A DNA stretch of 64,000 bases from Planctomycetota bacterium (GCA_016209705.1 JACQVR010000094.1:64-64063), one strand, 5' to 3'; counted from the first letter of the stretch, positions 6,274-49,626 are shown. A program made the numbers and translations. Notes: generated from the sequence alone by a model not told the origin.

Positions 6274-6298
6274 ACCACCAAGGCACAAGGTTGGTGGT
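6274..6298. repeat. Small hairpin ACCACCAAGGCACAAGGTTGGTGGT (8-bp stem). The CACCAAGG motif family is shared with the MITE-like element at 18515-18718.
   Basis: A perfect inverted repeat accaccaa/ttggtggt with a 9-nt loop. It lies in the divergent intergenic region between ydeP and the antitoxin gene. Confidence 0.4.
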
Positions 6299-6364
6299 GA
6301 AGAATGATCCGGGGTAAACGTTCATCTTGATCCTCGTCCCGAATGGTTATAACATAGTTCTTAT

Positions 6365-10840: not shown

Positions 10841-11641
10841 CTACTCCCCCTCCCCGCGCTCCTTCCAGCGCCGGACCGCTTCCCGGCGCATCCGCTCCTT
10901 CGCCGGCCCCCACGATATTCGCGCGGCGTCCAATTCCCTCCGGAACGCGGCGTGCTCGAGATCGGGGACGGCGATTTGGCCGCACACCAACTTCCGAGGC
11001 CGCGGATTGGGCAGCAAGCGACCCTTCAGAAGATCGTCGTCGGATATGTCCTTCTCCGTGATGTGCTCCGACGCCCTGTTTCCATTCCAGCTCGGAAATC
11101 CTTCGACATGAGAGAGGGGGCCCGGCATCACCACGGTTCGATGAATCTCCAGACCGCCGATCAACTCCCTGAGGATGCGCTTCTTCAACTCGTCGCCCGG
11201 TTCTTCCCCCTCCCGTTTCTTCTCCCCCATCTTGACGGCGATCTCGATCTTGCAATCCACGCGCTCTGCGATGTCCAGCATGCACCCTTCCCCGGCTGGG
11301 CCGAATGCGAACTGGACGACGTTCTTCCCCTTCCTGAGCTTCAGGCGGCCGATGTCCTCGAAATAAAGGACCAGGGCGCAGGAACGCCATCCCCCGCGCT
11401 CCTCCTCCTGCGGCTCGGAGCCGCCTGAAATTCCTTCGCTCTCCTCCACCAGCGAAGCCATCCAGGCGTAGGCGTCTTCGGCACCATACAGGGCGTAATC
11501 GCTCGGAACGGAGAACCGCATCCGCAATTTTCCGGAGCCGTCGGGCAGAAGCGTCCACTCCTCGTCATACTTGAAGCAGCCGGCTCCCAGGAGCAACGCG
11601 CCGGCCGCCGCCGCCCAACGACCGAACCTGAAGGATTTCAT
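10841..11641 (-). CDS. Hypothetical lipoprotein, last gene of the ECF sigma operon.
   Basis: Lipobox LLLGAGC follows MKSFRFGRWAAAAG. The upstream part of track ORF 10841..12319 is antisense artefact. ATG is at 11641. Confidence 0.55.
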   Translation of the reverse strand: MKSFRFGRWAAAAGALLLGAGCFKYDEEWTLLPDGSGKLRMRFSVPSDYALYGAEDAYAWMASLVEESEGISGGSEPQEEERGGWRSCALVLYFEDIGRLKLRKGKNVVQFAFGPAGEGCMLDIAERVDCKIEIAVKMGEKKREGEEPGDELKKRILRELIGGLEIHRTVVMPGPLSHVEGFPSWNGNRASEHITEKDISDDDLLKGRLLPNPRPRKLVCGQIAVPDLEHAAFRRELDAARISWGPAKERMRREAVRRWKERGEGE

Positions 11642-12939
11642 TTGGGGAGACCGGAATTGAGGTGGTCGCACGCGATCTCCAATCGCCGGGTCTCCACATA
11701 GGCCGTCTCCAGTTCGCCGACGCGCGGGTCCGCGTCCCTCGGCGCCCGAAGTCGGAGCTCGATCAGAGGTCCCTCCCATTCGAGGCGCTTCCATTCCACT
11801 TCCAGGCCCGCCAACGCGTCCTCCGTGGAGGCGTATCCCCGGCGATACATGAGCTCCACGACCAACGCGTCGCGGAACACAGGAGCCACATCGTCCAGGA
11901 GATCTTCGGCGCGTTCCTCGGCGACATGGGCCATCAGCTTGATCATGGAAGCCGAAACGGCTTCGGAGTGCCGGATCAAATCGCCGAGCGACCCGGTCCG
12001 GCCATCCTCCATCAGGATGCCGACGCGCCGGCAAAGATCCGGATGCACCGTCACCAATTCGGAGAAGCCTTGACTCTGAACGGCGACTTCGAGCGTCGGC
12101 CGTTCGGGCCCCCCTTCCTCGATCATCAGGCGCACGACGCCGTCGTTGAATTGCTTGCACTCCATCGCCTTCATGAGGCCCCCCACGTCCGCGCGAACCG
12201 CGATGAGCAGGACGGCGTCCTCCCTCGCTTCGGACGGGGTCTCGGCATCCTGCCTCCACAGGGCCAGATGGCGCACGTACCGTTTCGCCGTGGGTTCCAG
12301 GGCGGTCGTCTGGGTCCATGCGTTCTTGGACGCCTTGAACAGCGCCTTCTTCGCGGCGACCCTTCGAGCCACGTTTCGGGAATCGATCTCGTCCAGCGCA
12401 TCCTGCGGCGAGATCTCGACGGGGGGATAATCCTTGGCCACGATTTCTTCCAGCGCGAGGGTGTGGAGATTCAGGGCGCCCTCGAACAGGGTCGTGGAGG
12501 CCACGACGGGGCGCGCGGCGATCTCGTCTAATCTTTCCTCGATCGATTTGGCCAGCGCGGTCTTGTATTCCTGGACTGTCCTTTCGGCGACGTCCGGAGC
12601 GGGCTTCGTCTCATCGGCCTTCCAATACCGCATCCCACCCCACAAGGCGACCGCGGCGGCGGCCGCACCGGCGCTCCGGAGCGCCCATCGACGGAACGCG
12701 CGGGAGGGTGACGCCAGGCGAGACACGTAATCGCGACGGCGTCGCGGGTCCGGCCGATGGACGGAAGCGCCGAGCTGCACGGCGCGCGCCAGGATCCGCC
12801 ATTCCTCCTGCATCTTGGCGAACAACGCCGCGCACGCCGGGCATTCCGACGCGTGGGACCGCGCATCGCGCTCCCGGACCGCGTCGAGCCGGCGATCCAG
12901 CAATTCGGCCGCGCGGGCGGAAAATTCGTCACACCGCAT
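11638..12939 (-). CDS. Anti-sigma factor (zf-HC2 N-terminal domain, single TM, periplasmic C-terminal domain).
   Basis: The N-terminus reads SHASECPACAALF (HxxxCxxC). It overlaps the upstream ECF sigma stop and carries a TM segment near residue 100. Confidence 0.7.
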   Translation of the reverse strand: MRCDEFSARAAELLDRRLDAVRERDARSHASECPACAALFAKMQEEWRILARAVQLGASVHRPDPRRRRDYVSRLASPSRAFRRWALRSAGAAAAAVALWGGMRYWKADETKPAPDVAERTVQEYKTALAKSIEERLDEIAARPVVASTTLFEGALNLHTLALEEIVAKDYPPVEISPQDALDEIDSRNVARRVAAKKALFKASKNAWTQTTALEPTAKRYVRHLALWRQDAETPSEAREDAVLLIAVRADVGGLMKAMECKQFNDGVVRLMIEEGGPERPTLEVAVQSQGFSELVTVHPDLCRRVGILMEDGRTGSLGDLIRHSEAVSASMIKLMAHVAEERAEDLLDDVAPVFRDALVVELMYRRGYASTEDALAGLEVEWKRLEWEGPLIELRLRAPRDADPRVGELETAYVETRRLEIACDHLNSGLPK

Positions 12940-13540
12940 AGAGACCTTCCAGCAAGCCCCTCAGCTTCTGCCTCGCGCTGAACAGGCGGGACTTGACGGT
13001 TCCTTCCGGAATATCCAAGGCCCTCGCGATTTCGGCGTAACTCAGCTCCTCGAAATGGAACAGCTCCAGGATGAGCCGATCGTCCGCGCCGAGTCGCCGG
13101 AACGCTCTTCTCATGAGCTCGTCCGTCTCGCCGGGCGCCCCGACCGGAGGGCTGACCGCTTCCACCTGAATCCTGGCGGCCCGACGAAAGCGCGCGTCTT
13201 GCTGCTGGCGTTTGAGCCACTGTCTCTTGAGGATGCCCACCAGCCAGGTGAAAATCCCCGACTCCCCTCGAAAGCGCGCGATCGCTTTCAACGCGACCGT
13301 GAATGTCTCCTGCGTGAGATCTTCCACAGCCTCCCGATCATGGACCAACGCGCATGCGACGCGGAACAGCCGGTCGTAATGCGTCTCGACCAGCGTCCGG
13401 AGCGCGGAACGGTCTCCCCTCCGAGCTCGTTCCACGAGCCGGCCGTCGCCGATCGAACCCGGTACAGGCGGAATCGCCCGGCCGGATTTCTCCGACTCCC
13501 GGGCCGACGATTCCCTGCGGGTGGTCACAGATTCTTCCAT
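12929..13540 (-). CDS. RNA polymerase ECF (sigma-70 family) sigma factor.
   Basis: Regions 2 and 4 are present, reading DLTQETFTVALKAIARF ... LSYAEIARALDIPEGTVKSRLFSARQKL. Confidence 0.85.
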   Translation of the reverse strand: MEESVTTRRESSARESEKSGRAIPPVPGSIGDGRLVERARRGDRSALRTLVETHYDRLFRVACALVHDREAVEDLTQETFTVALKAIARFRGESGIFTWLVGILKRQWLKRQQQDARFRRAARIQVEAVSPPVGAPGETDELMRRAFRRLGADDRLILELFHFEELSYAEIARALDIPEGTVKSRLFSARQKLRGLLEGLYAV

Positions 13541-13557
13541 GAAGATCCGGAAGGAAA

Positions 13558-15225
13558 TTAATCTTCCTCTTTTTTCTTTTCTTCCGATCCCTTCCGCAGG
13601 TTTTCGAGCTGCTTCATGTTGGGATCGTCCTGTCCGACTCCCATCTTCTTGAGAAACTCGATCGCCTCGTCGATGCTGTTGAACGTCCGATTCAATTTGG
13701 GGTCTTCCGCGGGTTTGGACACGTCATCGACGAGAACCCCATTTCCGTCGCGCGTGCGTTTTCCGGCGGCTTCGGCTTTGACCCAGACGAGCGAGTCGTT
13801 CTGGAGCAGGCAGATCAAAGCGTAGTGCGCGGTGCGCCAGCTCGGTCCGTCGCAGGCCTCGTACCCAGCGAACCGGGGGGCCGCCCGCCGGGGCGGAGCC
13901 GCGAAGGATCCCTTCAATTCCTGCTGGCTCAGGATGAACACCTGGTGATGCTCGTTGAAATTCGTCCATGCCGACAGTCCCACCTGCCGGGACCAGATCG
14001 CCGCCGAGAGGAAGTGCGTCGGCAGCGCGACCGCTGCCTGGGCGACGGAGCGCACGTGCTCGCTGTAATACGCGGTCAAGTTCTGAAGGAACGCGTCTTC
14101 CATTCGACAGCCCATCGATCTCAAGGCCACGAGGGCGCCGGCGCAGCGTCCCGCTTCGCGGCGGCTGTCGAACGTCGGATCGACGACGAACCCCGCCGTT
14201 CCATCGTTCGAATGTTTCTTGAGATAGGCGCAGGCGCGCTCGAATACTTGGTTCTCGATCTCCACGCCCACCCGCTCCGCCGCGCCCAACGCCGTCAGAC
14301 ACTGATTCGCCGTCAACGTCCGTTCGCAATATCCCAGGTCCTGGCCCGCGGACCATCCCCCCTCCTCATGGGACGCGATCAGGAGGCGAACTCCCTCCTG
14401 AATCAGCGCGAATACGGACGGTTCCGGCGCGCGAGCGTAGCGTTCCGCGAAAAAGAGGGTCGTGGCGGCGGTCGCCCACGGTCCGATAGCCGTGGCGCTC
14501 TTCAGCGCGCCTTCGAGATAGCGGCCGCATCGGCCTACGGACTCGGCGTACGTTCCCGCCTTCCCGTCGCTCCCCGAAGCCAGAAACGCCAAACCCACCA
14601 TGGCGGTCACGGCCGCCTTGGGTCCCGCCTCATCCCGAGCCGCCGGAAACGAGCCGTCCGGAAGTTGGCTCCCCTTCAGGAACTCAAGGCCTTTCTCCGC
14701 CGCCAGCTCGTATCGCGCGCTCCGTCCCGGCAGCCCTTGTTCCAGCGGCGGAAGCGTCAGCGCCAGCCGCGCCGTTTGAATCCGGCCGTCCCTCAAAAAG
14801 GCAAGCTCCACCGTCTCCAGGCCGGCGGATAAGGCGGCTTCCAGCCGCCTGAGAAGATCGAGGGTCGGATCCTCCTTGAGCGGAAGAAAATCCTTCTCGA
14901 CGCGAATCAGAACGTCGCCGACTCGCAGCCCGATGGCGCGCAACGGCGATCCATCCTCGATCGTGCGCAGGACGACGCCGCCGGGGTAGCGGAATTGCTG
15001 CGGATCCGTGGCGTCCGGAACCTTGATCGAGCGCGTGGCGCCGTGCCCCGCGGCGCCCAGGAATCCGAGGGTGTGAAACTCGGCGACGTCGGGATCGAGA
15101 TAATCGACGCGTGGCGGGCCGGAAGATGACGTGAATCCGCGGAACGCCAGAAAGGCCGCGATGCCGGCGGCGATCAGCACCAGCAGAAAGGCGCCGGCCC
15201 GGCCCGACGAAGGATTGCAGGTCAT
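13558..15225 (-). CDS. Membrane-anchored PDZ-domain protein with prenyltransferase/squalene-oxidase (terpene-cyclase-like alpha/alpha toroid) repeats.
   Basis: An N-terminal TM anchor is followed by a PDZ-like segment IGLRVGDVLIRVEK. Repeated QLPDGSF/EEGGWS-type motifs follow. Confidence 0.6.
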   Translation of the reverse strand: MTCNPSSGRAGAFLLVLIAAGIAAFLAFRGFTSSSGPPRVDYLDPDVAEFHTLGFLGAAGHGATRSIKVPDATDPQQFRYPGGVVLRTIEDGSPLRAIGLRVGDVLIRVEKDFLPLKEDPTLDLLRRLEAALSAGLETVELAFLRDGRIQTARLALTLPPLEQGLPGRSARYELAAEKGLEFLKGSQLPDGSFPAARDEAGPKAAVTAMVGLAFLASGSDGKAGTYAESVGRCGRYLEGALKSATAIGPWATAATTLFFAERYARAPEPSVFALIQEGVRLLIASHEEGGWSAGQDLGYCERTLTANQCLTALGAAERVGVEIENQVFERACAYLKKHSNDGTAGFVVDPTFDSRREAGRCAGALVALRSMGCRMEDAFLQNLTAYYSEHVRSVAQAAVALPTHFLSAAIWSRQVGLSAWTNFNEHHQVFILSQQELKGSFAAPPRRAAPRFAGYEACDGPSWRTAHYALICLLQNDSLVWVKAEAAGKRTRDGNGVLVDDVSKPAEDPKLNRTFNSIDEAIEFLKKMGVGQDDPNMKQLENLRKGSEEKKKEED

Positions 15226-16424
15226 GGCTTCGAGCCGGCCGGACGACTCGCCGCCGGCTTTTTCTCCAGGGCGCCGTGAGCGGCCAGATAATGCTCAAGG
15301 CTCAGAATCGCGAAGCCGGTTCCCCACTTGTCCCCGTAACCGTAACAGATCGTATCCCACCAGCTCTTTTCCTTCTCCTGGTTGCGGAGAATCACTGTGA
15401 CGAGGTGATTCCAATGCTCCGGCGGGACGTCTTTCCCCAGCAGGGTCATGACCTCCGCCGCGTAATAGCATCCGTAGTAGAAGAAATAGCCGGAGATGTT
15501 GTGCGGCGCGTCGCGGTGGGGAATGATGCGCTTGTTTCCGATCCGCTCCACGTAGTCCAATGTTTTGAAAAAGAACTGATTCCGCTCGCGAAGGATCTCT
15601 CGCGTGTACGTATCGTCGTAATGATGCAGCGCCAACCCTCCGGCCTGCGTCCGCGCTCCGGCGCCGAGTTCTTCCAACGGATGCGTCGTGCTTCTTTTCA
15701 GGTAGTAGCCGTACATCATGTTCTTGTCGGGATACATCATCCGCTTCATGATCTTGGCGGCGTCCCCCAACATCCCTTCGGGGATGTCGAACCCTTGCTT
15801 CTTGGCCTTCATCAGCGGGAGCATGACCGACGCCGTCGTGAAGCTCAGGCAATCCCCACCCATGCCCGGATCCGAATAGTACGCCCATCCTCCCTCGTGC
15901 GCCTGAAGCTTTCGGAGCTGCTCGATGACCTCGGGGATGATGCGCTTCATTTCGTTGCGATGCGCTGAACCATACGGATGGTCCCAGAGCGCCGTCAGAA
16001 AATCCAAAATGTAGGCGTATCCCCACACATTGAACGCCTCCCCCGGATCGTAAGGACACTTCCACCCGCTCAAGACGGCATGGATCCCCTTGTCGAGCGT
16101 CTCGCCGTGCTCTTTCGTGCGCAAGGGATAATGCAGGAAAGCTTTCGCGATGATGGAAGTGCACGCCAGGCGCACGCTGTGTTGAGCGCCCCGACTCGTG
16201 AGTCCGAATCCGAGCTGGGAATCCTCCAGCGCCACGGGATCGTGGGATCCCCAGGATCCGTCCTTGTTCTGCTTTTCTCGAAGGAACCGGAAACCGTCCT
16301 CGATGGCCTGATGCGCCGCGACCGCGACGCTTTCCCGACTCGGCGGCGCCTTCTCGGTGTCTTGGCTTCGAGCGCTCAAGGGGGCCAGGAGCGCCCCGAC
16401 CAGCATGATCGGCGCGAGCCTCAT
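15222..16424 (-). CDS. Secreted prenyltransferase/squalene-oxidase repeat protein (terpene-cyclase-like).
   Basis: Signal peptide MRLAPIMLVGALLAPLSA. Repeat motifs include QNKDGSWG, HEGGWAYY and KEKSWWD. It overlaps the next gene by 4 nt. The 5' portion of the track ORF is antisense to the permease. Confidence 0.6.
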   Translation of the reverse strand: MRLAPIMLVGALLAPLSARSQDTEKAPPSRESVAVAAHQAIEDGFRFLREKQNKDGSWGSHDPVALEDSQLGFGLTSRGAQHSVRLACTSIIAKAFLHYPLRTKEHGETLDKGIHAVLSGWKCPYDPGEAFNVWGYAYILDFLTALWDHPYGSAHRNEMKRIIPEVIEQLRKLQAHEGGWAYYSDPGMGGDCLSFTTASVMLPLMKAKKQGFDIPEGMLGDAAKIMKRMMYPDKNMMYGYYLKRSTTHPLEELGAGARTQAGGLALHHYDDTYTREILRERNQFFFKTLDYVERIGNKRIIPHRDAPHNISGYFFYYGCYYAAEVMTLLGKDVPPEHWNHLVTVILRNQEKEKSWWDTICYGYGDKWGTGFAILSLEHYLAAHGALEKKPAASRPAGSKP

Positions 16425-16435
16425 GCGTGGCACTT

Positions 16436-16512
16436 TGAACCGCCAAAACGCCAAAGCGCCAGGGGAAGTCCTTACCGGAACTCTTTCGGCGGTTTGGCGC
16501 TTCGGCGGTTTA
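16436..16512. repeat. REP/MITE-like 77-bp palindromic element, copy 1 (TTGAACCGCCAAA...GGCGGTTTA).
   Basis: The arms gaaccgccaaaacgccaaagcgcc and ggcggtttggcgcttcggcggttta are inverted. A second copy with the same termini lies at 50596-50672. Confidence 0.45.
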
Positions 16513-16549
16513 CCCAAAGGATAAAACATGGATGACTCCTCACGGATCC

Positions 16550-17818
16550 TCATTCGGCCCGCAGCGCCAGGACCGGATCGAGCCGGGCCGCCCGGAACGC
16601 GGGAAGGGTGCCGAACAAGAGGGCGACCACGACGGAAACGCCGAACCCCAGGGGGAACGCGACCGGTTGGAACGCCACGTTCCATTGCGCCAAGGTTCCG
16701 ACGACCAGCGCGATCAAGACGCCCATTCCCAGACCGAGCAACCCGCCCAGTCCTCCCAGCAGCGTGCTCTCGCCCAGGAAAAGCTTGACGATCTCGCTTC
16801 GCGTCGCGCCCAGAGCGCGCCGAACGCCGATCTCCTGCCGACGCTCGGCCACGTTGGCCAGCATGATGTTCATGATCCCGATGCCGCCGACCAGCAGCGA
16901 GAGCGAAGCGATCGAACCCATGACCCACATGAAGATCCGCTCGGCCAGTTGATGCTCCTTCAACAAGGCGTGCGGGATCGTGGCCTCCACGTCCTTCAGG
17001 CGATGGCGGCTCTCCATCAAGTTGAGCGACGCCTGCGCCACGGGACCGAGATGGCCTACATCGGAAACGCGCAGGACGGCCCGATTCACTTCCACCTCGG
17101 TGGATTCCCAGACACCCTGACCCGAGCGGACCTGACGTGTTCCGAAACGGGCCAGCGCCGTGGAATACGGAATGTACGCGGCGTGATCCGGATTGGACAA
17201 CGCTCCCTGCGTTCCCGTCTGCCCCTTCTGCTCCAACACCCCCACGACGGTGAAGGGATCGCCGCCGATCTTGACGATCTCCCCGATGGAGTCGCTGAGC
17301 GGAAAGAGCAGGCGCGCCGTGTCGTGCCCGAGGACGCATATGGAGTCCGCCTGCCCTTCGTCCACCGGGCAGAGGAATCTCCCCTCGCGGATTCCGTGCT
17401 CCATGATCTCGCCGTACTCCGACGTCGTGGCGACCACGCTGGCGTCGGAATTCTGGAACGTCGTCGACACGTCGCGCAGGATCAGGCGCATCGGAAGCAC
17501 CGCTTCGACGCTGGGAAGGTTGTCCTTCAGAATCTCGAGGTCTTTCTGGGTGATTCCGTAGCTGGCGGTCCACGAAGACGTCGACCGCTCCTCTTCCCGC
17601 TTGCGGACCCTCTGGGGCTTGACGGAGTCCAGGATGATGTTGCGCAATCCCATGCGCTCGATGCGCGTGACGACGTCCCGCCGGGCCACCTCGCTGATGG
17701 ACAGCATGCAGATGACCGAGCTCACTCCGAACACGACGCCGAGCATGGCCAGGAAGGAGCGGGTCTTGTGCAGCAGGAGGTTCTGAAAGGCTTCGATCCA
17801 GAATTTGACGATCTTCAT
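16550..17818 (-). CDS. ABC transporter permease, MacB/FtsX family.
   Basis: The N-terminal TM is followed by a large periplasmic domain and a C-terminal FtsX 3-TM bundle, with GVRRALGATRSEIV. Confidence 0.85.
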   Translation of the reverse strand: MKIVKFWIEAFQNLLLHKTRSFLAMLGVVFGVSSVICMLSISEVARRDVVTRIERMGLRNIILDSVKPQRVRKREEERSTSSWTASYGITQKDLEILKDNLPSVEAVLPMRLILRDVSTTFQNSDASVVATTSEYGEIMEHGIREGRFLCPVDEGQADSICVLGHDTARLLFPLSDSIGEIVKIGGDPFTVVGVLEQKGQTGTQGALSNPDHAAYIPYSTALARFGTRQVRSGQGVWESTEVEVNRAVLRVSDVGHLGPVAQASLNLMESRHRLKDVEATIPHALLKEHQLAERIFMWVMGSIASLSLLVGGIGIMNIMLANVAERRQEIGVRRALGATRSEIVKLFLGESTLLGGLGGLLGLGMGVLIALVVGTLAQWNVAFQPVAFPLGFGVSVVVALLFGTLPAFRAARLDPVLALRAE

Positions 17819-18489
17819 GCCGACACCCGCCCGTTCTTCAACGTGATCGTCCGCGGCGTCCGTTCGGCGATCGCCCGATTATGCGTCACCACCACCACCG
17901 TCTTGCCTTCCCGGTTCAACGCCGCCAAGAGGTTGAAGATCTCGTTTCCGGTGTTTTCGTCGAGATTGCCCGTGGGCTCATCCGCCAGGATGAGGCTGGG
18001 ATTCCCGAGCAGGGCGCGCGCCACGGCCACGCGCTGCATCTCCCCGTTCGACAGTTCGAAGGGTCGATGGCGAAGGCGATGGGACAGGCCCACGCGCTCC
18101 AGGAGCGTCCGGGCGGTCCGCTCCTGCGCCCGCGCGTCGCCGTTCGCCAGGTACCGGGCGCCGAGCATCACGTTCTTGACGACGTTGAGCTGTGGAATGA
18201 GGTGAAACGATTGGAAGACGAAGCCGATCTCTTTCCCTCGCAGGCGCGCCTGCTCCACATCCGAGAGGTCCTGCACGGGCTGACCGTGAAAGCGGTAGGT
18301 TCCGCTCGTCGGCCGGATCATGAATCCCAGCAGATAGAGGAAGGTGGACTTGCCGGATCCCGAGCTTCCCACAATCGAGACGAATTCCCCCGCCTCCAAG
18401 GTCAGGCTGACATCCGAGAGCGCATAAACGCTCCCCCCCGGCATGGGGTATTCCTTGCCGACGCCCTGCACTTCGATCTGAGCTGGCAT
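17815..18489 (-). CDS. ABC transporter ATP-binding protein (MacB/LolD-type).
   Basis: Walker A GSSGSGKST, an LSNGEMQRVAVARAL signature and Walker B ILADEPTGNLD are present. Start MPAQIEVQG is at 18489. Confidence 0.9.
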   Translation of the reverse strand: MPAQIEVQGVGKEYPMPGGSVYALSDVSLTLEAGEFVSIVGSSGSGKSTFLYLLGFMIRPTSGTYRFHGQPVQDLSDVEQARLRGKEIGFVFQSFHLIPQLNVVKNVMLGARYLANGDARAQERTARTLLERVGLSHRLRHRPFELSNGEMQRVAVARALLGNPSLILADEPTGNLDENTGNEIFNLLAALNREGKTVVVVTHNRAIAERTPRTITLKNGRVSA

Positions 18490-18514
18490 TGCTTGACTCG
18501 GATAATTCATCAAG

Positions 18515-18718
18515 ATCACCACCAAGACACCAAGACACGAAGTAGGCTTGAGGGCACCAAGGACCGCATTTGGGTGGCTTCATCCATCGCCTCAGCTCCC
18601 GCGTGGCGACAGACTGTCGAAGCGAAGCGGAGCCAACGACCGTTGCAAAACACCATCCAGTGGCGTGCTTGGTGGCCCCTTAGCCCGCTTGGTGCCTTTG
18701 TGCCTTGGTGGTGCATGG
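18515..18718. mobile_element. MITE-like element, about 200 bp, with imperfect ~52-bp terminal inverted repeats built from CACCAAG units. It is inserted between the exporter MFP and ATPase genes.
   Basis: Left arm is atcaccaccaagacaccaagacacgaag...ggcaccaagg. The right arm's reverse complement is caccaccaaggcacaaaggcaccaagcgg...ccaccaagcacgc. No credible ORF is present. Confidence 0.45.
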
Positions 18719-18733
18719 ACAACTCAGGTGACC

Positions 18734-20212
18734 CTATCCCTTAAACGGATTGTAGAGGTACACCTTTTCGCCGGGCCGCAGGCCTTCCACGATCTGCACG
18801 GCCTTGCCGTTGCTGGTCGCGATCTTCACTTCGCGCTTGACCGGGCGATCGCCTTCCTGGACGTAGCAGTAGTACTGCCCTCCTTCTGCGAAGACCGAAA
18901 CCACGGGCACCTGAACGGCTTCCGCGACGGTGTCGACGTGGATCGTGACGCGGCAGTTCATTCCTGCCCGCAGTTGAGGATGGACTCCTTCGTACGCGCC
19001 GACGACCTTGAAAGACCGGACGGCGCTCATGAACTCGTCGCGGCTGGCGATATGCTCGACTTTCGTCACTTTTCCGCGGATGTTCAGATCCGGGAACGCG
19101 TCCGGACGAAGGGTGATCGGCAAGCCCTCCTTCATGTGCTGGATGTCGTTCTCCCGCACCTGCATCTTGACGGACAAATGCTCCATGGAGGCGATGGTCA
19201 GCAGCGTTTCGTGCGTCTGCACCCGGCCGCCCACGCGCAGGTTCCGCTGGCCGCCCCCGAAGGAAATGATCACGTCGCCGAGCGGATTCTCGTCCGTGAG
19301 CGAGCCGTAGAAGACGATTCCGTTGCGGGGAGAAAGGACTTTCAGCATTTCCAGGTCCTGCTCGAGGCGGCTCACCTTATCCTGGGCGATCTTGAACTCG
19401 CGCTGCGCCTTCTGGACCCCGGCTTGCTTCTCCGCCACCTTCGTCTCGAAGCTGACCTTTTCCTTCTTTTCTTCGGCCTGGATCTTCTTGATCTCGAGCA
19501 TCTTCTTCTCGGCGTCGATGTCCAGCTCGTACTTCTTGAAGTGTTCCAGCTTCTCCCGCTGCTTCTCGAGCCCTCGCTCCGCTTCCTCGATTTGCCGCCG
19601 CGCGCGCTCGACCAGAATCGTTTCGGTGGCGGTATGGAGTTCCCGCTCGTCGTACAGCTTCTTGAGCTGCTCGAAATTGATCCGGCTGTCCTTCAATGAA
19701 TTTTCCGAGTTGCGGATTTCTTTCAACTTGTCGTCCAGCTTGAACTCCTTGTTCTTCACCTCCGCCTCATGGCTCCGCTCGGCCATCTCCAGCTCTTTGA
19801 GGATGCGCTCCAGGGTCGCCGCCTGATCGATTTGCGTGACGGCGAGCTCCGATTCGGCCTTTTGAAGCGCCAGGCGGGCGTCGTCCACGGCGGTGACGGC
19901 CTTTTCGATCGCGTCCTGGATCGTCTTGGTATCGAGCTGGAGGAGCGGGTCCCCTTCCTTGACGGAGGCGCCCTCGGGAATGATCTGGGTGATGATCAAG
20001 TCGCCGCGGTACTCCTTGGGCTCGACCGCGATGCGCGTCTTGTCTTCGGCGTGGAAGACTCCGGCGACCTGGGCCTCGATGGAGAGGTTGTCTTTCACGA
20101 CCGTCGCCAGCATGCCCTCCTTCGCCCCTCCATCCCCCGTTTTCGCCGTGGGAAAGAGAGCCAGCGCCGCCACGGCGGAAAAAGCGATCAAGGCACCCGT
20201 CTTCACGATCAT
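18734..20212 (-). CDS. HlyD/MacA-family periplasmic adaptor (membrane fusion protein).
   Basis: A signal anchor is followed by a long coiled-coil (Glu/Lys-rich heptads). The C-terminal beta-barrel/MPD domains read KVYLYNPFKG. Confidence 0.85.
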   Translation of the reverse strand: MIVKTGALIAFSAVAALALFPTAKTGDGGAKEGMLATVVKDNLSIEAQVAGVFHAEDKTRIAVEPKEYRGDLIITQIIPEGASVKEGDPLLQLDTKTIQDAIEKAVTAVDDARLALQKAESELAVTQIDQAATLERILKELEMAERSHEAEVKNKEFKLDDKLKEIRNSENSLKDSRINFEQLKKLYDERELHTATETILVERARRQIEEAERGLEKQREKLEHFKKYELDIDAEKKMLEIKKIQAEEKKEKVSFETKVAEKQAGVQKAQREFKIAQDKVSRLEQDLEMLKVLSPRNGIVFYGSLTDENPLGDVIISFGGGQRNLRVGGRVQTHETLLTIASMEHLSVKMQVRENDIQHMKEGLPITLRPDAFPDLNIRGKVTKVEHIASRDEFMSAVRSFKVVGAYEGVHPQLRAGMNCRVTIHVDTVAEAVQVPVVSVFAEGGQYYCYVQEGDRPVKREVKIATSNGKAVQIVEGLRPGEKVYLYNPFKG

Positions 20213-22306: not shown

Positions 22307-23062
22307 ATGAGAACGCTGCTTCGGCTCAGCTTCGGGGTGGCGCTGACCGCGTCAGGCTGCCATTTCCGATCGCAGGATGACCCAGCCCAGGAGCCCCGCG
22401 CGGCGGCCGCAGCCGTCGCGAACATCCCGGCTCTCGACCGACAAATCCCCGATGTTCTCGAATCCGCCACATTCGCGGTCGGCTGATTCTGGGATGCGGA
22501 CGCCCGGTTCGGGACCGTCCCCGGCGTCGTGCGCACGCGCGTGGGATACGCCGGCGGAACGCTCGCGAATCCCGCCTATGACCACATAGGCGACCATCTC
22601 GAGGCGATCCAGATCGACTACGATCCGTCGCGAGTCACGTACGAGGATCTCCTGGATCTCTTCTGGGAGATCCATGATCCCTGCCCGCCGCGCTGGACCC
22701 GCCAGTACATGTCCGTCATCTTCACGCACAACGAGACGCAACGGGAACTCGCGGAGGGATTCAAGGCGCGCGAGGACGCCCCGGGCGCGATCATTCCGAC
22801 CAAGATCCTCCCGTTGACCCGGTTTTATCCGGCGGAGGACCGTCATCAAAAGTACGTGCTGCGTCAGATAGAAGAGCTGATGCGGGAGTTCCGCGCCATG
22901 TATCCCAGGGAGGCCGACTTCGTGAATTCCACGGCGGCCGCGCGCGTCAACGGATTCGTGGCCGGCCTCACCCTAGCGGAACGGATCGAAGCGGTGATCG
23001 ATCAATTAGGGCTTTCTCCCGAGGGTCGGCGACTGCTGCGATCCTTCGCCCTTCCGCAGTGA
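22307..23062 (+). CDS. msrA: Peptide methionine sulfoxide reductase MsrA lipoprotein with in-frame TGA (22484-22486) at the catalytic Cys position. Candidate Sec-MsrA.
   Basis: A GGGAGG RBS precedes signal/lipobox MRTLLRLSFGVALTASGC. Translation continues ...ESATFAVG-TGA-FWDADARFGTVPGVVRTRVGYAGG... (GCFWG becomes GUFWD). The rest of MsrA, including DPCPPRW, is in frame through to 23062. Confidence 0.7.
22498..22520 (+). promoter_or_regulatory. Candidate bSECIS hairpin, 11 nt downstream of the msrA TGA.
   Basis: GGACG-CCC-GGUUC-GGG-AC-CGUCC folds as a bipartite stem with an apical loop GGUUC. Confidence 0.45.
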
Positions 23063-24777: not shown

Positions 24778-24915
24778 GCCCTACTGAACGATTTTAGAAC
24801 CACTCTTCGGACATGGTTCGACTCGCCGCTGCGCGGCTCGCTCACCATACTTCGCCTCGCGCGGCAAGAGGGTACTTGTACTGAGCGAGCGCGGTGACAG
24901 CCGCGCGAGTCGAAG

Positions 24916-24989
24916 TACGCCCGGCAGGAATCGAACCTGCAACCTACTGGTTCGTAGCCAGTCACTCTATCCAATTGAGCTACGGGCGC
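24916..24989 (-). tRNA. tRNA-Arg (anticodon ACG).
   Basis: Sense sequence is GCGCCCGTAGCTCAATTGGATAGAGTGACTGGCTACGAACCAGTAGGTTGCAGGTTCGATTCCTGCCGGGCGTA. It folds as a cloverleaf with anticodon loop CUACGAA and T-loop GGTTCGATTCC. The 1:72 pair is G:U. Confidence 0.85.
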
Positions 24990-30456: not shown

Positions 30457-30539
30457 TATGGTATGTTACATTCCATGTTACGTTTTATTCTCAAAACTTA
30501 TTGTAACGTTACAATATATTTTCAAAATATTTCGTAACA
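30457..30539. promoter_or_regulatory. AT-rich operator cluster A. It holds a perfect palindrome TTGTAACGTTACAA (30501-30514) and arrayed GTTAC/GTAAC half-sites separated by TTTTCAAAA-type cores.
   Basis: An ~85-bp island of >75% AT in a 68% GC genome, immediately upstream of the mscL-like gene and the DUF21-CBS-EIIA gene. The same motif grammar recurs at 34980-35012 and 39185-39280. Confidence 0.5.
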
Positions 30540-39184: not shown

Positions 39185-39280
39185 TGTTACAAAACATTTT
39201 CAAAATATATCGTAACGTTACAATATATTTTGAAAACTATTTGTAACTGTTACATAAAGTTCTCAAAACTTATTGTAACG
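39185..39280. promoter_or_regulatory. AT-rich operator cluster C. Three consecutive GTTAC-N19/20-GTAAC dyads including TCGTAACGTTACAA, in the divergent region between the E1 fusion gene and trpD.
   Basis: Sequence is TGTTACAAAACATTTTCAAAATATATCGTAACGTTACAATATATTTTGAAAACTATTTGTAACTGTTACATAAAGTTCTCAAAACTTATTGTAACG. A TTGACA -35 box follows at 39282. Confidence 0.5.
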
Positions 39281-43759: not shown

Positions 43760-44197
43760 ATGTTTGAGATGCGTGGCAACGGGCGAGAAGAGAAGCCTCC
43801 CTCGTGGGCTCGAAGTCTTTCCGCCGAAATGCGCGCTTACCTCCGGCACGGCTCCGAGGAAGCGGCAAGGAATCGGAAGGAGGCGCAAAAGGATCGGCAG
43901 GAAATGCGGGCCTATTTCCAGAAAGTAATCGAGAAGGCCGATGCGGATCGGCGGGAAACGCGGGAGTACTTCCAGAAAGTGATCGCGAATGCTGAAGCGG
44001 ACCGGAAGGAAATGCGGGCCTTCTTCCAAACCGTGGCCGCGCAGGCGGCGGACGACCGCGCGGACTTCAAGGCGGATCGGGCCAACTTCGCCAAGCTCAC
44101 CGCGATGGTCGTTAAGATCGGCAACGAGATCATCAGGCGGCTCGAAGATATCCAGCGAACGCTCTACATCCAAGGCAACGGGCGTAGGAATAGGTAA
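43760..44197 (+). CDS. Hypothetical repeat protein. It has 3 copies of an ~19-aa EMRAYFQKVIxxAxADRxE unit plus a C-terminal module DFKADRANFAKL...IQGNGRRNR that is duplicated at 50410-50549.
   Basis: Internal periodicity is clear. The C-terminal 46 aa are ~80% identical (about 75% at DNA level) to the tail of ORF 50247..50549. Confidence 0.5.
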   Translation: MFEMRGNGREEKPPSWARSLSAEMRAYLRHGSEEAARNRKEAQKDRQEMRAYFQKVIEKADADRRETREYFQKVIANAEADRKEMRAFFQTVAAQAADDRADFKADRANFAKLTAMVVKIGNEIIRRLEDIQRTLYIQGNGRRNR

Positions 44198-44209
44198 AGC
44201 CGCCTCCTG

Positions 44210-45037
44210 TTACCGGGCTTTGTGCCGGTACCACCACGTTCCATCCAAGATCCCCAGCGCCGCGAGAAGATCCAGTCCGACCGAACCGCATCCGCCGCCT
44301 CCGCTCTCCGAGCTCCCGCTCGACCCTCCCGTCGGTCCGCCATCGCCTCCGTTCCCGCCCCCTTCTCCACCGCCGCATCCGCCTTCCCCGCCGACCTGAT
44401 CCGCGCCGGTATCTTTTCGATCCACGCGAACCGTGAAATCGACGCGCTCGTCGATAACTTCCTCTTTTTCGATCCGGGCCAGCAGCGCCTCGTCGAGACG
44501 GAGCAGTCTTTTGGCTTTGATGTATTCGACGTTTTCGCGATAGACCGCCACGAGATCTTCTTCCGCCAGTTCGCCTTCTTTGATGAGCTGGTTCAGGATC
44601 TTTTCCGGAGCCGACGGATCGCGCATCTGGCCGGGGTGCACGTGGAGCGCGTGGAGGTAGCCGCGGATCAAGGCGCGGATCTTTTGATTCGGCGCGGGCG
44701 GCGGAGCCTTTTCTTCCGCCACGCGTTCCTCGGAACGGCGGGAAGCATCCGGAGATTCGTCACGCTGAATCGCGAAACTCCAGACGATCAGGATCGTGGC
44801 GGCAAGCAAGGGGAAAACCAGGTATCTCAACAGGCGCTTTCGCGGGCCGGCGAAGTTCGCCGGACGGCCGCTCATCTTTTCGAAGAGAAGCGCTTCCTCG
44901 CAGGATGCTTCGATCATTTTCCGGGCCAGGCCACGATCCCGTTTCAGCCGCGCCGTGAATTCCGTCTCTTCGTCCGCGTCGAGCTGCGCATAAAGGGCGC
45001 GCAGGATGAGGTCGTCGGCGGCGGTCCTCGTGTTCAT
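44210..45037 (-). CDS. Putative anti-sigma-like single-TM membrane protein with a Gly/Cys-rich C-terminus.
   Basis: An N-terminal cytoplasmic domain is followed by TM LVFPLLAATILIVWSFAI. The C-terminal low-complexity region reads GGEGGCGGGEGGGNGG. It lies directly downstream of the sigma fragment. Confidence 0.4.
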   Translation of the reverse strand: MNTRTAADDLILRALYAQLDADEETEFTARLKRDRGLARKMIEASCEEALLFEKMSGRPANFAGPRKRLLRYLVFPLLAATILIVWSFAIQRDESPDASRRSEERVAEEKAPPPAPNQKIRALIRGYLHALHVHPGQMRDPSAPEKILNQLIKEGELAEEDLVAVYRENVEYIKAKRLLRLDEALLARIEKEEVIDERVDFTVRVDRKDTGADQVGGEGGCGGGEGGGNGGDGGPTGGSSGSSESGGGGCGSVGLDLLAALGILDGTWWYRHKAR

Positions 45038-45440
45038 GATTCGTTCGCTCCCCATTCCGAGCTTTCGACCTTTCGGTTGACGCAATCACGAATCGCCAGG
45101 CGAACGCGCTTCAGGAGCGCGTACGTCGCCTGCACGGTCTTCCCGATCGATCCGGCGATTTGCGGCACGTCCAGGGCCGAACCGTAGCGCAAGGTGATGA
45201 TCTTGCGGGAAAGACCGCGAAGGGACTTCATTCACTCGTCCAGCGCCGCGCACCGTCGTTCGATGTAGGAGGTTTCATCGACTTCCTTCGCGGCTTCGGC
45301 GAGTTGATCGAGCACTTCGGGATCGACGGTGACGAAACCGGCGCGACTCTTCTTGAAGAAATCCAGGATGGAGCGCCGGGCGATTTCGCGGATCCACGCA
45401 CGGAAATTGAGGATCGGCCCCTGGCGTTCCCATTGAGCAT
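45034..45440 (-). pseudogene. ECF sigma factor remnant. It is N-terminally truncated, and region 2 and region 4 are separated by an in-frame TGA.
   Basis: The frame reads ...WERQGPILNFRAWIREIARRSILDFFKK...AALDE-TGA-MKSLRGLSRKIITLRYGSALDVPQIAG.... There is no start codon or region 2.1/2.2 between it and the upstream gene end at 45508. Confidence 0.5.
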
Positions 45441-45507
45441 TCTTTTTTCCTCTGCGAAACGCCGGTTTATTCGACAGCGCTTATCCGGTCTCCTCCCTGG
45501 AAGGAGC

Positions 45508-46680
45508 TTATCCGGCTATCCTCTGGAGCCATTCTCCAGGGTTGCATACGAGGAGGGATGGATTTTCGATCTTGCGCGCGATTCGGCAGACGAGAACGCG
45601 GCGCTTTGCCTGGATCATGTCCGCCGTTTTGTTCAACCGTTCGATCTCTTCAGTCGAGGGATTAGAGGTCAGCTTGATCTCGACGGCCCACGATTCTCCG
45701 CCTTTTTCCAGCACGAGGTCCAATTCGTAGCCGTCCGACGTGCGGAAGAAATAGGCGCGATCTTGCTTGCCTACGGCGGAGAGCGCGGCGAGCGTTTGCT
45801 CGATCACGAAGCCCTCCCAGCTTGCGCCCAGCCAGGGCTGGCGATACAGGTGATCGAGATCGTTTACCCCCATCAACGAGTGAAGCAGGCCGCTGTCCCT
45901 CCAGTAAACGCGGGGCACCCTGACGAGGCGCTTCCTGATGTTCTTGAAATAAGGTTGGAGCCTATGGATGAGGAAGGCGCCCTCCAGGTAATCGCAATAT
46001 CGGATGACGGTCTTGTGGTCCAGCGCCAGGCTTGACCCGAGCTGGGAGGCGTTCAGCGGTTGTCCCTGGATGGAGGCGAGCATGTGCAGCAATCGAAGCA
46101 GCAACTGCGGTTTGGCCGGCAGGCCCCACGTGGGAAGATCGCGCGTCACCTGCGTGTTCAAATAATCCCGCTGCCATTCGGGAAACATCCGAGCGTCGAG
46201 AATCCCGCCGTCGGGATAGCCGCCGCGAAGCCACAGATCATCGATTTGGTCAGGTGCAAGTTCGGGCAAAATGAAGGGACTCATCATGACCAGTCCCATT
46301 CGGCCGGCCAAGGATTCTGAGACATTCTCCATCAACGCCGGGGAGACCGAGCCCAGAAGCAGGAAGCGTCCGTTTCGCTTTCGGTCCGCATCGATGGCCC
46401 CGCGCAGCCGCGAAAAAACCTCGGGGGCTTGCTGGACCTCGTCGAGAACGATCAATTTTTTGCCCGCCACCAAGGCATCCCATTCGGCGTCGAGGCGGGC
46501 TTCGCCGCCGTCCGTTTCCAGGTCGAAATAGACGCCTTCGAAGCCGCGGGCGAGCGTGGTCTTGCCGCATTGACGCGGCCCCAGAATACCCACGGCGGGG
46601 AACTTCCCGAGCTTGTCCCGTACTTGGAGGGCATAGAGACGGGGAATCATTTCTTGTATTATGGGAATTCGTTCCCACAT
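45508..46680 (-). CDS. AAA-family ATPase (AAA_14 plus DUF4143 type).
   Basis: Walker A GPRQCGKTT, Walker B LIVLDEVQ and a DUF4143-like C-terminal domain are present. Start MWERIPII. Confidence 0.75.
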   Translation of the reverse strand: MWERIPIIQEMIPRLYALQVRDKLGKFPAVGILGPRQCGKTTLARGFEGVYFDLETDGGEARLDAEWDALVAGKKLIVLDEVQQAPEVFSRLRGAIDADRKRNGRFLLLGSVSPALMENVSESLAGRMGLVMMSPFILPELAPDQIDDLWLRGGYPDGGILDARMFPEWQRDYLNTQVTRDLPTWGLPAKPQLLLRLLHMLASIQGQPLNASQLGSSLALDHKTVIRYCDYLEGAFLIHRLQPYFKNIRKRLVRVPRVYWRDSGLLHSLMGVNDLDHLYRQPWLGASWEGFVIEQTLAALSAVGKQDRAYFFRTSDGYELDLVLEKGGESWAVEIKLTSNPSTEEIERLNKTADMIQAKRRVLVCRIARKIENPSLLVCNPGEWLQRIAG

Positions 46681-46889
46681 TGCAATAATTACTGAAAACA
46701 TGGCGCAACCTTTACGGATGGGTTTCGCGCGGACTTCAGGTATTTTTCAAGACAGCCATAAATTTGTAACGATCTTTCTTGAGATGTATGTCTTTCCCCC
46801 AACGATCTCGCTACATAAATGTTTTACTTGACAATTGCTGATTTATAACTATATTAAGTTAGCTGTAAGTGTTTTTCACAAACCACGCC

Positions 46890-48425
46890 ATGGACAAACA
46901 CGACCAGCGAAAGGCAGGGATCAGGCCGGCCGGCTATGAGGCCCTGATCGCCCGGTACGAACTGGACGTCATCCCGAACTGGCACCGTTCTTTCGTGGCC
47001 GCCGGTGGCCTCCGTCGGATCAAGGCCTCTTCCGGTGTAACCGAGGAAATCTATCCGCCGAAGTACTGGCCAGGGGATTCTCTTGGAGACCATCTCGAGT
47101 TCGCGCTCAAGTACGACGGCACGAACCTGGCGATCCTCGCCAAGATATTTCAGGTCTCGCCACAAGAGGAAATCCTGGATCACATCCGGTCCAAGCCGAC
47201 CGGCAAGTACGCCCGGAGGTTGTGGTTCCTGTACGAATTTCTGACCGGCAACCCCCTCCCCTTGGACGACCTCACGCGAGGAAACTACATCAACCTCCTC
47301 GATCCTGAGGAGTACTACACGGCCGAAACAGCCCGGCTCGTGCGTCGCCAGCGGATCAACGACAACCTGCTCGGTGACCGGCGATTCTGTCCGGCGATCC
47401 GTCGCACCGCTGCGCTCCAGGGCTTCGAGCGCGCCGATCTTCCCGAACGCGGCCGGAAGGTCGTGGCCGCCTTTGCGCCGGAGCTTCTGAAACGGGCCTT
47501 GAGCTACCTGTACACCAAGGAGACGAGATCATCCTTCGAGATCGAGCGCATCAAGCCGGACTCGATGCGCACGGAGCGCTTCGTCGCGCTCTTGCAACTG
47601 GCGCAGCGGGAGGACTTCTGCGAAAAGCTCCAGTTGATCGACCTCCAGAACCGTATCGTCGACCCTCGGTTCCGAGAAGTCGATTATCGCACAAGCCAGA
47701 ATTACGTCGGCGAAACCGTCGCTTGGCAGCAAGAAAAGGTCCATTTCGCATGTCCGAAGCCGGAAGACCTGCGCGATCTGATGGAAGGGTTGGTCGCCGC
47801 TCATCGCCGCATGAACGCGGGCGATGTTTCGCCCGTGGCGCATGCCGCGGCGATCGCCTATGGATTCGTCTACCTCCATCCGTTCGAAGACGGGAACGGC
47901 CGCATCCATCGTTTCCTGATCCACAACATTCTGGCGCGCCGCGGCTTTACCCCCGAAGGAATGATGTTCCCGGTGTCGGCATCCATGCTGAAGAACGCCG
48001 CGGACTACGACGCCTCGCTCGAGGCCTTTTCCCGTCCTTTGATGGCCCTGGTGGAATACTCCTTGGACGACGAGGGGCGGATGACCGTTCACAACGATAC
48101 GGCCTCCTGGTATCGGTACATCGACATGACCTTCCAGGCCGAGGCTTTGTTCAAGTTCATCGAGCGGACGATCGCCACGGAACTGGTCGAGGAGTTGACC
48201 TTCCTGGCCAACTACGACCGGACCAAGAAGGCGATTCAAGAGATCGTGGACATGCCGGATCGACACATCGATCTTTTCATCCGGTTCTGTCTGCAAAATA
48301 ACGGCCGCCTTTCCGCGCGGAAGCGCGCCGGCCCCTTTTCTTCCCTCTCGGACGAGGAAGTCGCGCGCATGGAAGAGGCCGTTCAATCTTCCTATGGAAA
48401 CGAGACGAGGGACGAGCGTCGATGA
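46890..48425 (+). CDS. Fic family protein (adenylyltransferase/AMPylator-type).
   Basis: The Fic motif HPFEDGNGRIHR is present, with a long N-terminal helical extension. The AT-rich divergent promoter upstream has TTGACA and TATAAC boxes. Confidence 0.85.
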   Translation: MDKHDQRKAGIRPAGYEALIARYELDVIPNWHRSFVAAGGLRRIKASSGVTEEIYPPKYWPGDSLGDHLEFALKYDGTNLAILAKIFQVSPQEEILDHIRSKPTGKYARRLWFLYEFLTGNPLPLDDLTRGNYINLLDPEEYYTAETARLVRRQRINDNLLGDRRFCPAIRRTAALQGFERADLPERGRKVVAAFAPELLKRALSYLYTKETRSSFEIERIKPDSMRTERFVALLQLAQREDFCEKLQLIDLQNRIVDPRFREVDYRTSQNYVGETVAWQQEKVHFACPKPEDLRDLMEGLVAAHRRMNAGDVSPVAHAAAIAYGFVYLHPFEDGNGRIHRFLIHNILARRGFTPEGMMFPVSASMLKNAADYDASLEAFSRPLMALVEYSLDDEGRMTVHNDTASWYRYIDMTFQAEALFKFIERTIATELVEELTFLANYDRTKKAIQEIVDMPDRHIDLFIRFCLQNNGRLSARKRAGPFSSLSDEEVARMEEAVQSSYGNETRDERR

Positions 48426-48458
48426 TCGTCTCGCCGGGCTCCGTGAAAATCGAGATCT

Positions 48459-49478: not shown

Positions 49479-49550
49479 GCGCTCCGCGACGGCCCGAGAA
49501 TCCGGACCCAGGGCGAGGTTTTCCACGGCGATTCTCCTTAAATCTTATCT

Positions 49551-49564: not shown

Positions 49565-49626
49565 CTAAATAATATTTACTCAAGGAACATCTGGCATCCC
49601 GCGGACGCGCGGTTTAGGATGCCCGT

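Follow-up and report, generated by a model that had tools for sequence, protein, structure and literature searches.

The window considered here, i.e. the whole analysed stretch of 64,000 nucleotides (nt) from a Planctomycetota bacterium (GCA_016209705.1, JACQVR010000094.1:64-64063), carries at positions 10841-20212 a cluster of genes on the minus strand. In this cluster a membrane fusion protein (MFP), an ATP-binding cassette (ABC) pump of the MacB type and two exported toroid proteins, named tor1 and tor2, are followed by an extracytoplasmic function (ECF) sigma factor, an anti-sigma factor and a putative lipoprotein. The source is a metagenome-assembled genome (MAG) of Planctomycetes with the locus tags HY716_12040 and HY716_12045. 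The first five genes are a conserved operon-like module, and within it the MFP and tor1 genes are a pair kept across two phyla. The genes, numbered g1 to g8 in the order of transcription, and the one long spacer are listed below (protein lengths in amino acids, aa).

18734-20212, minus strand: g1, MFP of the HlyD/MacA/YknX type, 492 aa
18526-18733, minus strand: spacer between g1 and g2, 208 nt, one long imperfect hairpin
17815-18525, minus strand: g2, ABC ATPase of the LolD/MacB/FtsE type, 236 aa
16550-17818, minus strand: g3, permease with MacB_PCD and FtsX domains, 422 aa
15222-16529 or 15222-16424, minus strand: g4 (tor1), predicted secreted toroid protein, 435 or 400 aa
13558-15225, minus strand: g5 (tor2), predicted anchor, PDZ domain and toroid (DUF6288), 555 aa
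12929-13540, minus strand: g6, ECF sigma factor, 203 aa
11638-12939, minus strand: g7, anti-sigma factor of the zinc-containing anti-sigma (ZAS) type, 433 aa
10841-11647, minus strand: g8, putative lipoprotein, 268 aa

A first-pass annotation of the window had described a co-directional minus-strand cluster at these coordinates, and it is present there. Nine genes had been counted, of which eight were found; the sole extra open reading frame (ORF) encodes 68 aa within the hairpin spacer between g1 and g2 and was judged spurious, so no credible ninth gene is left. The overlapping or short junctions of the same description are seen at six of the seven positions, with overlaps of 4 nt at both g2/g3 and g4/g5, of 11 nt at g6/g7 and of 10 nt at g7/g8, and with gaps of 17 nt at g5/g6 and of 20 or 125 nt at g3/g4, depending on the start chosen for g4. 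The exception is the g1/g2 gap of 208 nt. Strong terminators between the genes, which had been named as an observation that would speak against a common unit, were not found: the terminator scan gave 8 terminator-like sites against 10.2 expected from shuffled sequence, and those on the minus strand within 10841-20212 all lie inside coding sequence.

The contexts of homologues were fetched, the window proteins were compared by tblastn with 86 loci, which represent separate species of two phyla, and all ORFs of these loci were clustered all-versus-all. Clustering recovered tor1 in 86 loci, the MFP in 79, the ATPase in 18, the MacB permease in 14 and tor2 in 13. In 79 of the 86 loci tor1 is preceded by an MFP, and of the ten tor1 copies with no co-directional MFP upstream six are located at a contig end; in the two phyla MFP and tor1 are regarded as an obligate pair of genes. 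The tor1 family itself is large (at least 89 clusters, and more than 528 loci among GTDB species genomes), and its best 80 loci all belong to Planctomycetota, to Verrucomicrobiota or to MAGs labelled just 'bacterium'. According to the identity of their tor1 to g4 the loci are put into class A (at least 37%) and class B (about 30%). Class A comprises about 15 planctomycete relatives of different lineages, in which the order MFP-ATPase-MacB-tor1-tor2 is the same as in the window (L001, L003, L007-L010, L013-L015, L017, L067 and a JGI contig); the same order is found in L002, where the contig begins inside the ATPase gene, and a tor2 orthologue is present in L012 (hhalign 99.9%). The products of the pump genes in class A share 45-67% identity with those of the window, the toroids 27-58%. 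It is this five-gene synteny that bears out the proposed link between export machinery and two envelope toroid proteins. Lack of synteny in relatives had been named as the ground for rejecting the cluster, and by that measure the module of eight or nine genes fails and the module of five survives.

Class B consists of about 60 other species of Planctomycetota and Verrucomicrobiota, in which the MFP is followed directly by tor1, without the other module genes. Where the MFP and tor1 genes are directly joined, an overlap of 4 nt is seen most often (15 pairs), and the majority of the other junctions are shorter than about 60 nt. No tblastn match to a MacB permease was obtained within 10 kb of the class B pairs, only occasional matches to generic ABC ATPases some distance away, and the all-versus-all clustering gave no conserved third gene in these loci beyond lineage-specific synteny. 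The pair is also carried by cultured strains, namely Rhodopirellula sallentina SM41 and Maioricimonas sp. JC845. Some loci have peculiarities of their own. In L013 (4356-9796) and L014 (4693-9825), both of Pirellulaceae/Mariniblastus, the order is MFP-ATPase-MacB-MFP2-tor1-tor2, the second MFP being 39-41% identical to g1 and placed directly before tor1. On the JGI contig of protein P0002, genes of PqqD-like, ATP-grasp and ornithine/arginine decarboxylase-like proteins lie nearby, upstream of the MFP gene on the opposite strand, with an 838-aa TPR protein encoded between them and the MFP; this region, found in one relative only, has the look of a gene set for ribosomally synthesised and post-translationally modified peptides (RiPP-like).

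The three last genes of the cluster do not share this conservation. The product of g6 matches Sigma70_r2, Sigma70_r4_2 and Sigma70_ECF in Pfam and sigma70-ECF (TIGR02937) in NCBIfam, the latter with 92.6 bits against a cut-off of 42.9. In g7 the residues H29-x3-C33-x2-C36 are followed by one predicted transmembrane (TM) segment and a predicted periplasmic domain of about 320 aa without known family, and residues 2-42 give a weak match to the RsrA anti-sigma model of NCBIfam. With regions 2 and 4 in the sigma factor and an HxxxCxxC anti-sigma factor encoded immediately downstream, g6 and g7 have the features of an ECF sigma/ZAS anti-sigma pair. The g8 protein begins with a lipobox-like signal (…ALLLGAGC) and has no Pfam or NCBIfam match. 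A metagenome contig scan revealed no relatives of g7 or g8, and an exhaustive search among 1.84 billion representatives found eight full-length, distant homologues of g7. Two of them were placed on contigs (L090 and L092), each after an ECF sigma gene and with an 11-nt overlap as in the window. In the 15-kb context of L090 the neighbours of the g7 homologue are TPR/HEAT and VWA genes, with no MacB/pump, toroid or g8 gene by it; the L092 contig is only 2.2 kb long. Beside the module itself g6, g7 and g8 were found in none of the relatives (about 15 of class A and about 60 of class B), and the sole ECF gene in its vicinity, in L006, is convergent. Genes of histidine kinases, response regulators and ECF factors near tor1 were sporadic in a BLAST survey of all loci. 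One such case is Rhodopirellula sallentina SM41 (L069, 8520-13805), in which the MFP-tor1 pair, with a 4-nt overlap, is followed by a co-directional HisKA_3 histidine kinase and a LuxR-type response regulator, an adjacency that parallels the ECF pair of the window and is not general.

Because no relative has g6-g8 beside the module, and because the g7 homologue of L090 lies in an unrelated context, g6 and g7, together with g8, are with high confidence considered an independent sigma/anti-sigma unit whose adjacency is specific to the window genome. The dedicated ECF/anti-sigma pair and lipoprotein, which the first-pass annotation had counted as module members, have thus to be given up. Its wider suggestion, an envelope-stress or surface-remodelling module, can be spelled out as a single unit of all eight genes, in which the ECF pair would sense a periplasmic signal and control the pump and the toroids. 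The co-directional genes, the 17-nt gap between g5 and g6 and the lack of a terminator-like site between genes agree with such a module, and the regulators of L069 show that envelope regulators sometimes adjoin the MFP-tor1 pair; nevertheless, with g6-g8 by the module in no relative, the ECF gene of L006 convergent, and the placed g7 homologues in sigma/anti-sigma pairs, that of L090 without a pump, this explanation is considered quite improbable. It is possible that g6-g8 are co-transcribed with g1-g5 in this one organism, given the short gap and the absence of a terminator.

The ATPase encoded by g2 matches ABC_tran in Pfam (3e-33), and its best NCBIfam models are LolD (1e-68), the N-terminal part of MacB (1e-61) and also FtsE, all below the equivalog cut-offs. 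Its Walker A motif reads GSSGSGKS in translation, a TTG at 18525 gives the protein of 236 aa (alternative ATG codons are at 18510 and 18489), and its class A orthologues share 54-67% identity with it. The permease g3 contains MacB_PCD (5e-34, residues 21-230) and FtsX (1e-23, residues 302-415); among solved structures E. coli MacB comes closest (5nik, E = 6e-41, the match covering the entire permease), and full-length alignment was obtained also to 5gko and 5lil. The FtsX four-helix domain, the large MacB_PCD between TM1 and TM2 and a cognate ATPase of the MacB/LolD/FtsE clade place g2 and g3 among the MacB-type, or Type VII (mechanotransmission), ABC transporters. Like MacAB-TolC of E. coli, the module combines a permease with MacB_PCD and FtsX, an ATPase of the LolD/MacB/FtsE type and an HlyD/MacA-type MFP, here encoded first in the operon. 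It differs from MacAB-TolC in having ATPase and permease as separate genes, in the hairpin of its MFP, in which the insert of about 194 aa (residues ~95-288, between the lipoyl half-motifs) is without the RLS motif of TolC docking, and in the two co-encoded toroid proteins, for which MacAB has no counterpart. No outer-membrane factor (TolC/OEP) was found in the cluster, in a scan of 20 window ORFs that flank it or among the genes tabulated for the relatives.

The adaptor g1 starts with a signal-anchor and gives matches above cut-off to HlyD_D23 (4e-9) and HlyD_3 in Pfam, along with RND_mfp (1e-25) and MacA (1e-9) in NCBIfam. Its solved relatives are MexJ, ZneB and MacA, the β-barrel and C-terminal families of YknX are present in its orthologues, and the protein was accepted as an MFP, a type defined by lipoyl, β-barrel and α-hairpin domains. 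The hairpin insert is considerably longer than that of MacA. Its tip, in the middle of the insert, carries the motif INFEQLKKLYDERELHTATETIL and is the best-conserved stretch of the whole protein in 73 aligned tor1-linked MFPs, with the consensus EELxQLEKMYxADDLTEETEEIxLKR in class B and [VI][DN]FEQLxxLYxERELHTxTExIL in class A. Docking of MacA, AcrA and HlyD to TolC depends on the RLS motif RxxxLxxxxxxS/T (PMC3391258). This motif is absent from g1 and occurs in the tip region of just 2 of the 73 tor1-linked MFPs. A tip that is both conserved and non-canonical implies a conserved non-canonical partner, and tor1 is the one gene by which these MFPs are always accompanied. A conserved basic loop of tor1, G-R/N-K-R-x-x-P-H at residues 296-303, could by inference complement the acidic tip.

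Two starts can be proposed for tor1, an ATG at 16529 (435 aa, with the Shine-Dalgarno sequence GAGGAG upstream) and the ATG at 16424 of the NCBI annotation (400 aa); the protein has a signal peptide and is predicted to be Sec-secreted and soluble. There is no specific model of it in NCBIfam or Pfam, the match to SQHop_cyclase_C is sub-threshold, and the Pfam and NCBIfam scores stay below the family cut-offs. Its AlphaFold model (pLDDT 87, pTM 0.88), like the model of tor2, has twelve long helices, which fits a single (α/α)6 toroid and not a βγ didomain. Profile alignment of the two proteins (hhalign 98.6%, E = 7e-16) indicates that tor1 and tor2 are paralogues. Two QW-type motifs of tor1, QNKDGSWG and QEKEKSWWD, match the repeats of squalene-hopene cyclase (SHC), and the sequence likeness to this enzyme is limited to the QW repeat. 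In 35 tor1 sequences of both classes the invariant residues are Q52, G56, G59, G178, G179, W180, Y182, T197, Y238, R258, P302, H303, G312, Y313, Y321, E350, D357, Y363 and T369, and the near-invariant ones include D55, W58 and K298. According to the secondary structure of the model all of them lie in the loops after helices 1, 3, 5, 7, 9 and 11. These loops would form one face of the barrel, and the placement of the invariant residues in alternate-helix loops suggests a pocket for a ligand or a fixed interface with a protein. Among the acidic residues E350 and D357 alone are invariant, and they lie within a QW-type motif.

The toroids had been called terpene-cyclase-like, with the advice to look for catalytic Asp-rich motifs. 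The name is right as regards the fold and the QW motif, which are those of class II terpene cyclases and the SHC superfamily, and wrong as regards catalysis: in 35 tor1 and 8 tor2 sequences a regular-expression search (D.D[DE] and DCTAE) gave no aligned DxDD/E or DCTAE motif, only scattered, non-aligned occurrences in the tails, and the same holds for the thioester motif CxEQ. No invariant Cys for a Zn site is present in the tor1 or tor2 alignments, and no gene like that of the prenyltransferase α-subunit was found in the neighbourhoods of module homologues. In contrast to the cyclases, the toroid proteins are single-domain, without the DxDD(TA) acid motif, and have Sec signals and a predicted periplasmic location; the CxEQ of α2-macroglobulin and complement proteins and the Zn site of the prenyltransferase β-subunit are lacking too. 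Judged by these motifs, the toroids are not cyclases. That they are nevertheless true class II terpene cyclases, prenyltransferases or α2-macroglobulin-type thioester proteins of the envelope is scarcely credible, as fold and QW repeats are outweighed by the missing motifs, the lack of an invariant Cys and the single toroid in place of a βγ didomain. YPO2471, an exported protein of Yersinia pestis with unknown function (PDB 7tem), was counted among the closest known proteins; its identity is only 13%, and at the sequence level it does not match the profile of tor1 at E ≤ 1.

A different enzymatic role can be considered, in which tor1 would be a periplasmic enzyme, for example a glycan hydrolase, lyase, epimerase or lipid-modifying enzyme, that trims or modifies the polymer or lipid being exported, comparable to BcsZ, AlgL or TesA in their export systems, and its linkage to the MFP would reflect coupling in one pathway and not docking. 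No catalytic motif of any named family was recognised in tor1, the neighbourhood has no conserved gene for a glycosyltransferase or for polysaccharide synthesis, and the sequence kinship is with the QW-motif terpenoid-cyclase/prenyltransferase superfamily and not with a glycoside hydrolase family, so such a role is viewed as rather unlikely.

In tor2 an N-terminal anchor is followed by the PDZ domain, an (α/α)6 toroid, a disordered linker and two C-terminal helices with the motif SIDEAIEFLKKMGV, the form common to the orthologues being F-x-S-x-EEA-x-EFLKKMG. The protein matches DUF6288 (PF19805) with 33.8 bits against a gathering cut-off of 26.3 (E = 2.7e-8), and its AlphaFold 2 model (pLDDT 83.6) shows PDZ-like strands at residues 58-155 and then 12 helices. 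The PDZ_2 match of the window copy is weak (16.7 bits vs the cut-off of 27), whereas 31.6 bits are reached by the orthologue of L012 and 55 bits by a PDZ-only protein of L011; the carboxylate-binding loop PGGVV is conserved in the orthologues, and tor2 was accepted as PDZ-containing. It is the repeat protein with a PDZ domain and a membrane anchor that the first-pass annotation had noticed. A lipobox with its Cys (…GC or …SC) is present in six of the seven tor2 orthologues. In the window copy this Cys is lost, and the protein is therefore predicted to be signal-anchored and not lipidated. The QW-type motifs and an Arg equivalent to R258 are kept in tor2, but not H303, E350 and D357. Among 5.8 billion proteins there are 7 close clusters of tor2, and the profile search for a deeper alignment added weak partial matches only. 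DUF6288 is precomputed on P0001, P0002, P0004, P0005 and P0008. This family, like tor2, combines PDZ and toroid; in contrast to tor2, its distant member P0008 adjoins no pump, and the MacB-linked subfamily is rare and has a C-terminal motif of its own. In the class A locus L011 (~11100-11799) the position of tor2 is taken by a secreted PDZ-only protein of 236 aa with a helical tail rich in K/E/Q/M, and the PDZ domain and tail, rather than the toroid, may be the indispensable part of tor2. The C-termini of module proteins were considered as PDZ ligands and rejected: the end of class A MFPs (…LYDPxxx) is semi-conserved, with last residues that are variable and not hydrophobic, and the ends of tor1 and tor2 are variable.

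Taken together, g1-g5 are best explained as a MacB-type pump with an MFP and two periplasmic toroid partners, which are neither cargo nor cyclases, with g6-g8 as a separate unit; confidence in this picture as a whole is evenly balanced, being high for the definition of the module and the independence of the ECF unit and low for the docking and the substrate. Type VII ABC systems with a gene-linked periplasmic partner have precedents (PMC12646458). In YbbAP-TesA, LolCDE-LolA and FtsEX-EnvC, as in the window, the gene of a MacB-fold ABC transporter is linked to that of a periplasmic protein which takes over, or works on, whatever is presented to it (PMC12646458). Where these systems use an SGNH hydrolase, a LolA-fold chaperone or a coiled-coil/LytM activator, the window has a pair of (α/α)6 toroids as partner; it also has an MFP, and the tightest linkage is that of MFP and toroid, not of permease and partner. 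By analogy, the MacB dimer would drive, with ATP, a movement of its periplasmic domain inside the long MFP tube, and tor1, a soluble protein with a conserved pocket or interface on one face, would dock on the MFP, most likely at the hairpin tip. The docked tor1 would receive, hold or process the substrate, as TesA does for YbbAP, LolA for LolCDE and EnvC for FtsEX (PMC12646458); alternatively, it may act on the substrate as an enzyme. As a membrane-tethered paralogue in which most of the conserved residues of tor1 are lost, tor2 would probably be a scaffold or recruiter that works through its PDZ loop and C-terminal docking helix. The substrate thought most likely would be a lipid or isoprenoid-like hydrophobic molecule of the envelope, or a glycan. 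In class B species the pair would have to work with a transporter encoded elsewhere, or alone.

The toroids could also be looked upon as cargo, delivered by Sec to the periplasm and then by the MacAB-type pump to the surface, as are enterotoxin STII or dispersin. MacB-family pumps can take periplasmic substrates, and the toroid genes stand directly after the pump genes. However, folded toroids of 40-60 kDa far exceed the known MacB cargo in size, tor2 orthologues are lipoproteins or membrane-anchored, and most MFP-tor1 pairs have no pump gene nearby, which leaves very little room for this explanation.

Several points weigh against the pump-and-partner interpretation preferred here. Gene linkage and motif conservation are the whole basis from which docking of tor1 at the MFP tip has been deduced, and the tip alignment was composed of tor1-linked MFPs only. 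The conserved tip could contact an outer-membrane factor specific to the Planctomycetes-Verrucomicrobia-Chlamydiae (PVC) group instead of tor1. As no ABC gene lies within 10 kb in about 60 class B loci, the pair may not need MacB, and what is seen in class A could be a secondary arrangement. The PDZ-only replacement in L011 makes the toroid of tor2 dispensable. Moreover, the conserved neighbours of the module give no hint of the substrate, and no biosynthetic gene is conserved nearby.

The spacer between g1 and g2 is a feature of the window copy, since this junction has 3-72 nt in relatives against 208 nt here. Its RNA is predicted to fold with a minimum free energy of -108.9 kcal/mol (z = -4.5), and none of 200 shuffles folds as well. 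The arms of the hairpin are built from CACCAAGGCAC-type repeats, an 11-mer with 9 matches in the window vs 0.6 expected, and no U-tract follows it. The hairpin could be an inserted element like the repetitive extragenic palindromes or miniature inverted-repeat transposable elements (REP/MITE-like), or a device that sets the expression ratio of MFP to pump. As a multicopy element it was not met again in the window, apart from a short motif-sharing hairpin at 6274-6300. The latter, ACCACCAAGGCACAAGGTTGGTGGT, has the motif CACCAAGG in common with the spacer and is located at the 3' end of a 777-aa ORF without Pfam match.

The genes that flank the cluster are unrelated to it and include those of a convergent TonB-C protein, an EEP-family protein, MsrA, a Na/H exchanger, rpoN, deoxyhypusine synthase and trpD. 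A PMSR gene (methionine sulfoxide reductase) lies at 22529-23062 on the plus strand, within about 2.5 kb of the module, and a copy in L003 (11710-12234, minus strand) is directly downstream; this proximity in both is possibly a coincidence. Rfam and tRNA scans of the window detected nothing in the cluster, and one tRNA-Arg only, at 24915-24989. AT-rich intergenic arrays of palindromes, with units of about 31 nt of the form GTTACA-N19-TGTAAC, are situated at 39186-39280 and 30476-30539, with three tandem units between an E1 dehydrogenase gene and a trpD-like gene and two units upstream of a CNNM/CBS/EIIA gene, and they look like candidate operators of some regulator. The region from about 44000 to 56000 is of lower GC content (0.58-0.62 vs about 0.64), encodes a DUF4143/AAA_14 ATPase (45508-46701) and a Fic/DOC protein (46869-48425), and may be a mobile or defence-related island.

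The components of the module are of known kinds, and their combination, as well as the MFP-toroid pair, appears to be undescribed: a full-text search of the literature gave no mention of DUF6288 or YPO2471 and nothing that links MacB or HlyD to prenyltransferase-repeat proteins in PVC bacteria. Only a few jobs of Type VII (MacB-fold) systems are known to us, i.e. efflux through TolC, extraction of lipoproteins to LolA, activation of amidases through EnvC and hydrolysis of lipids by TesA, and to our knowledge each of them became clear once the periplasmic partner was identified. It is proposed, tentatively and with more doubt than conviction, that Planctomycetota and Verrucomicrobiota possess a hitherto unrecognised periplasmic assembly in which the tube of a long-hairpin MFP, with a non-RLS, acidic and highly conserved tip, is capped by, or docked to, a soluble (α/α)6 toroid that replaces or joins a TolC-type duct and serves as acceptor or carrier of an envelope lipid or isoprenoid, or of a glycan. 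If this assembly is real and coupled to MacB, it would add a fifth functional type to the Type VII ABC machines. The linkage of the genes in both phyla speaks for a new class of Type VII partners, toroids of the terpene-cyclase fold that do not look catalytic, and a distinct MFP subfamily is indicated, with another conserved tip in place of the TolC-docking motif. Such a system would give a role to DUF6288 and to many hypothetical proteins annotated as 'prenyltransferase/squalene oxidase repeat', and for PVC bacteria, in which little of the biology of the envelope is understood, it offers a concrete entry point to the study of envelope transport.

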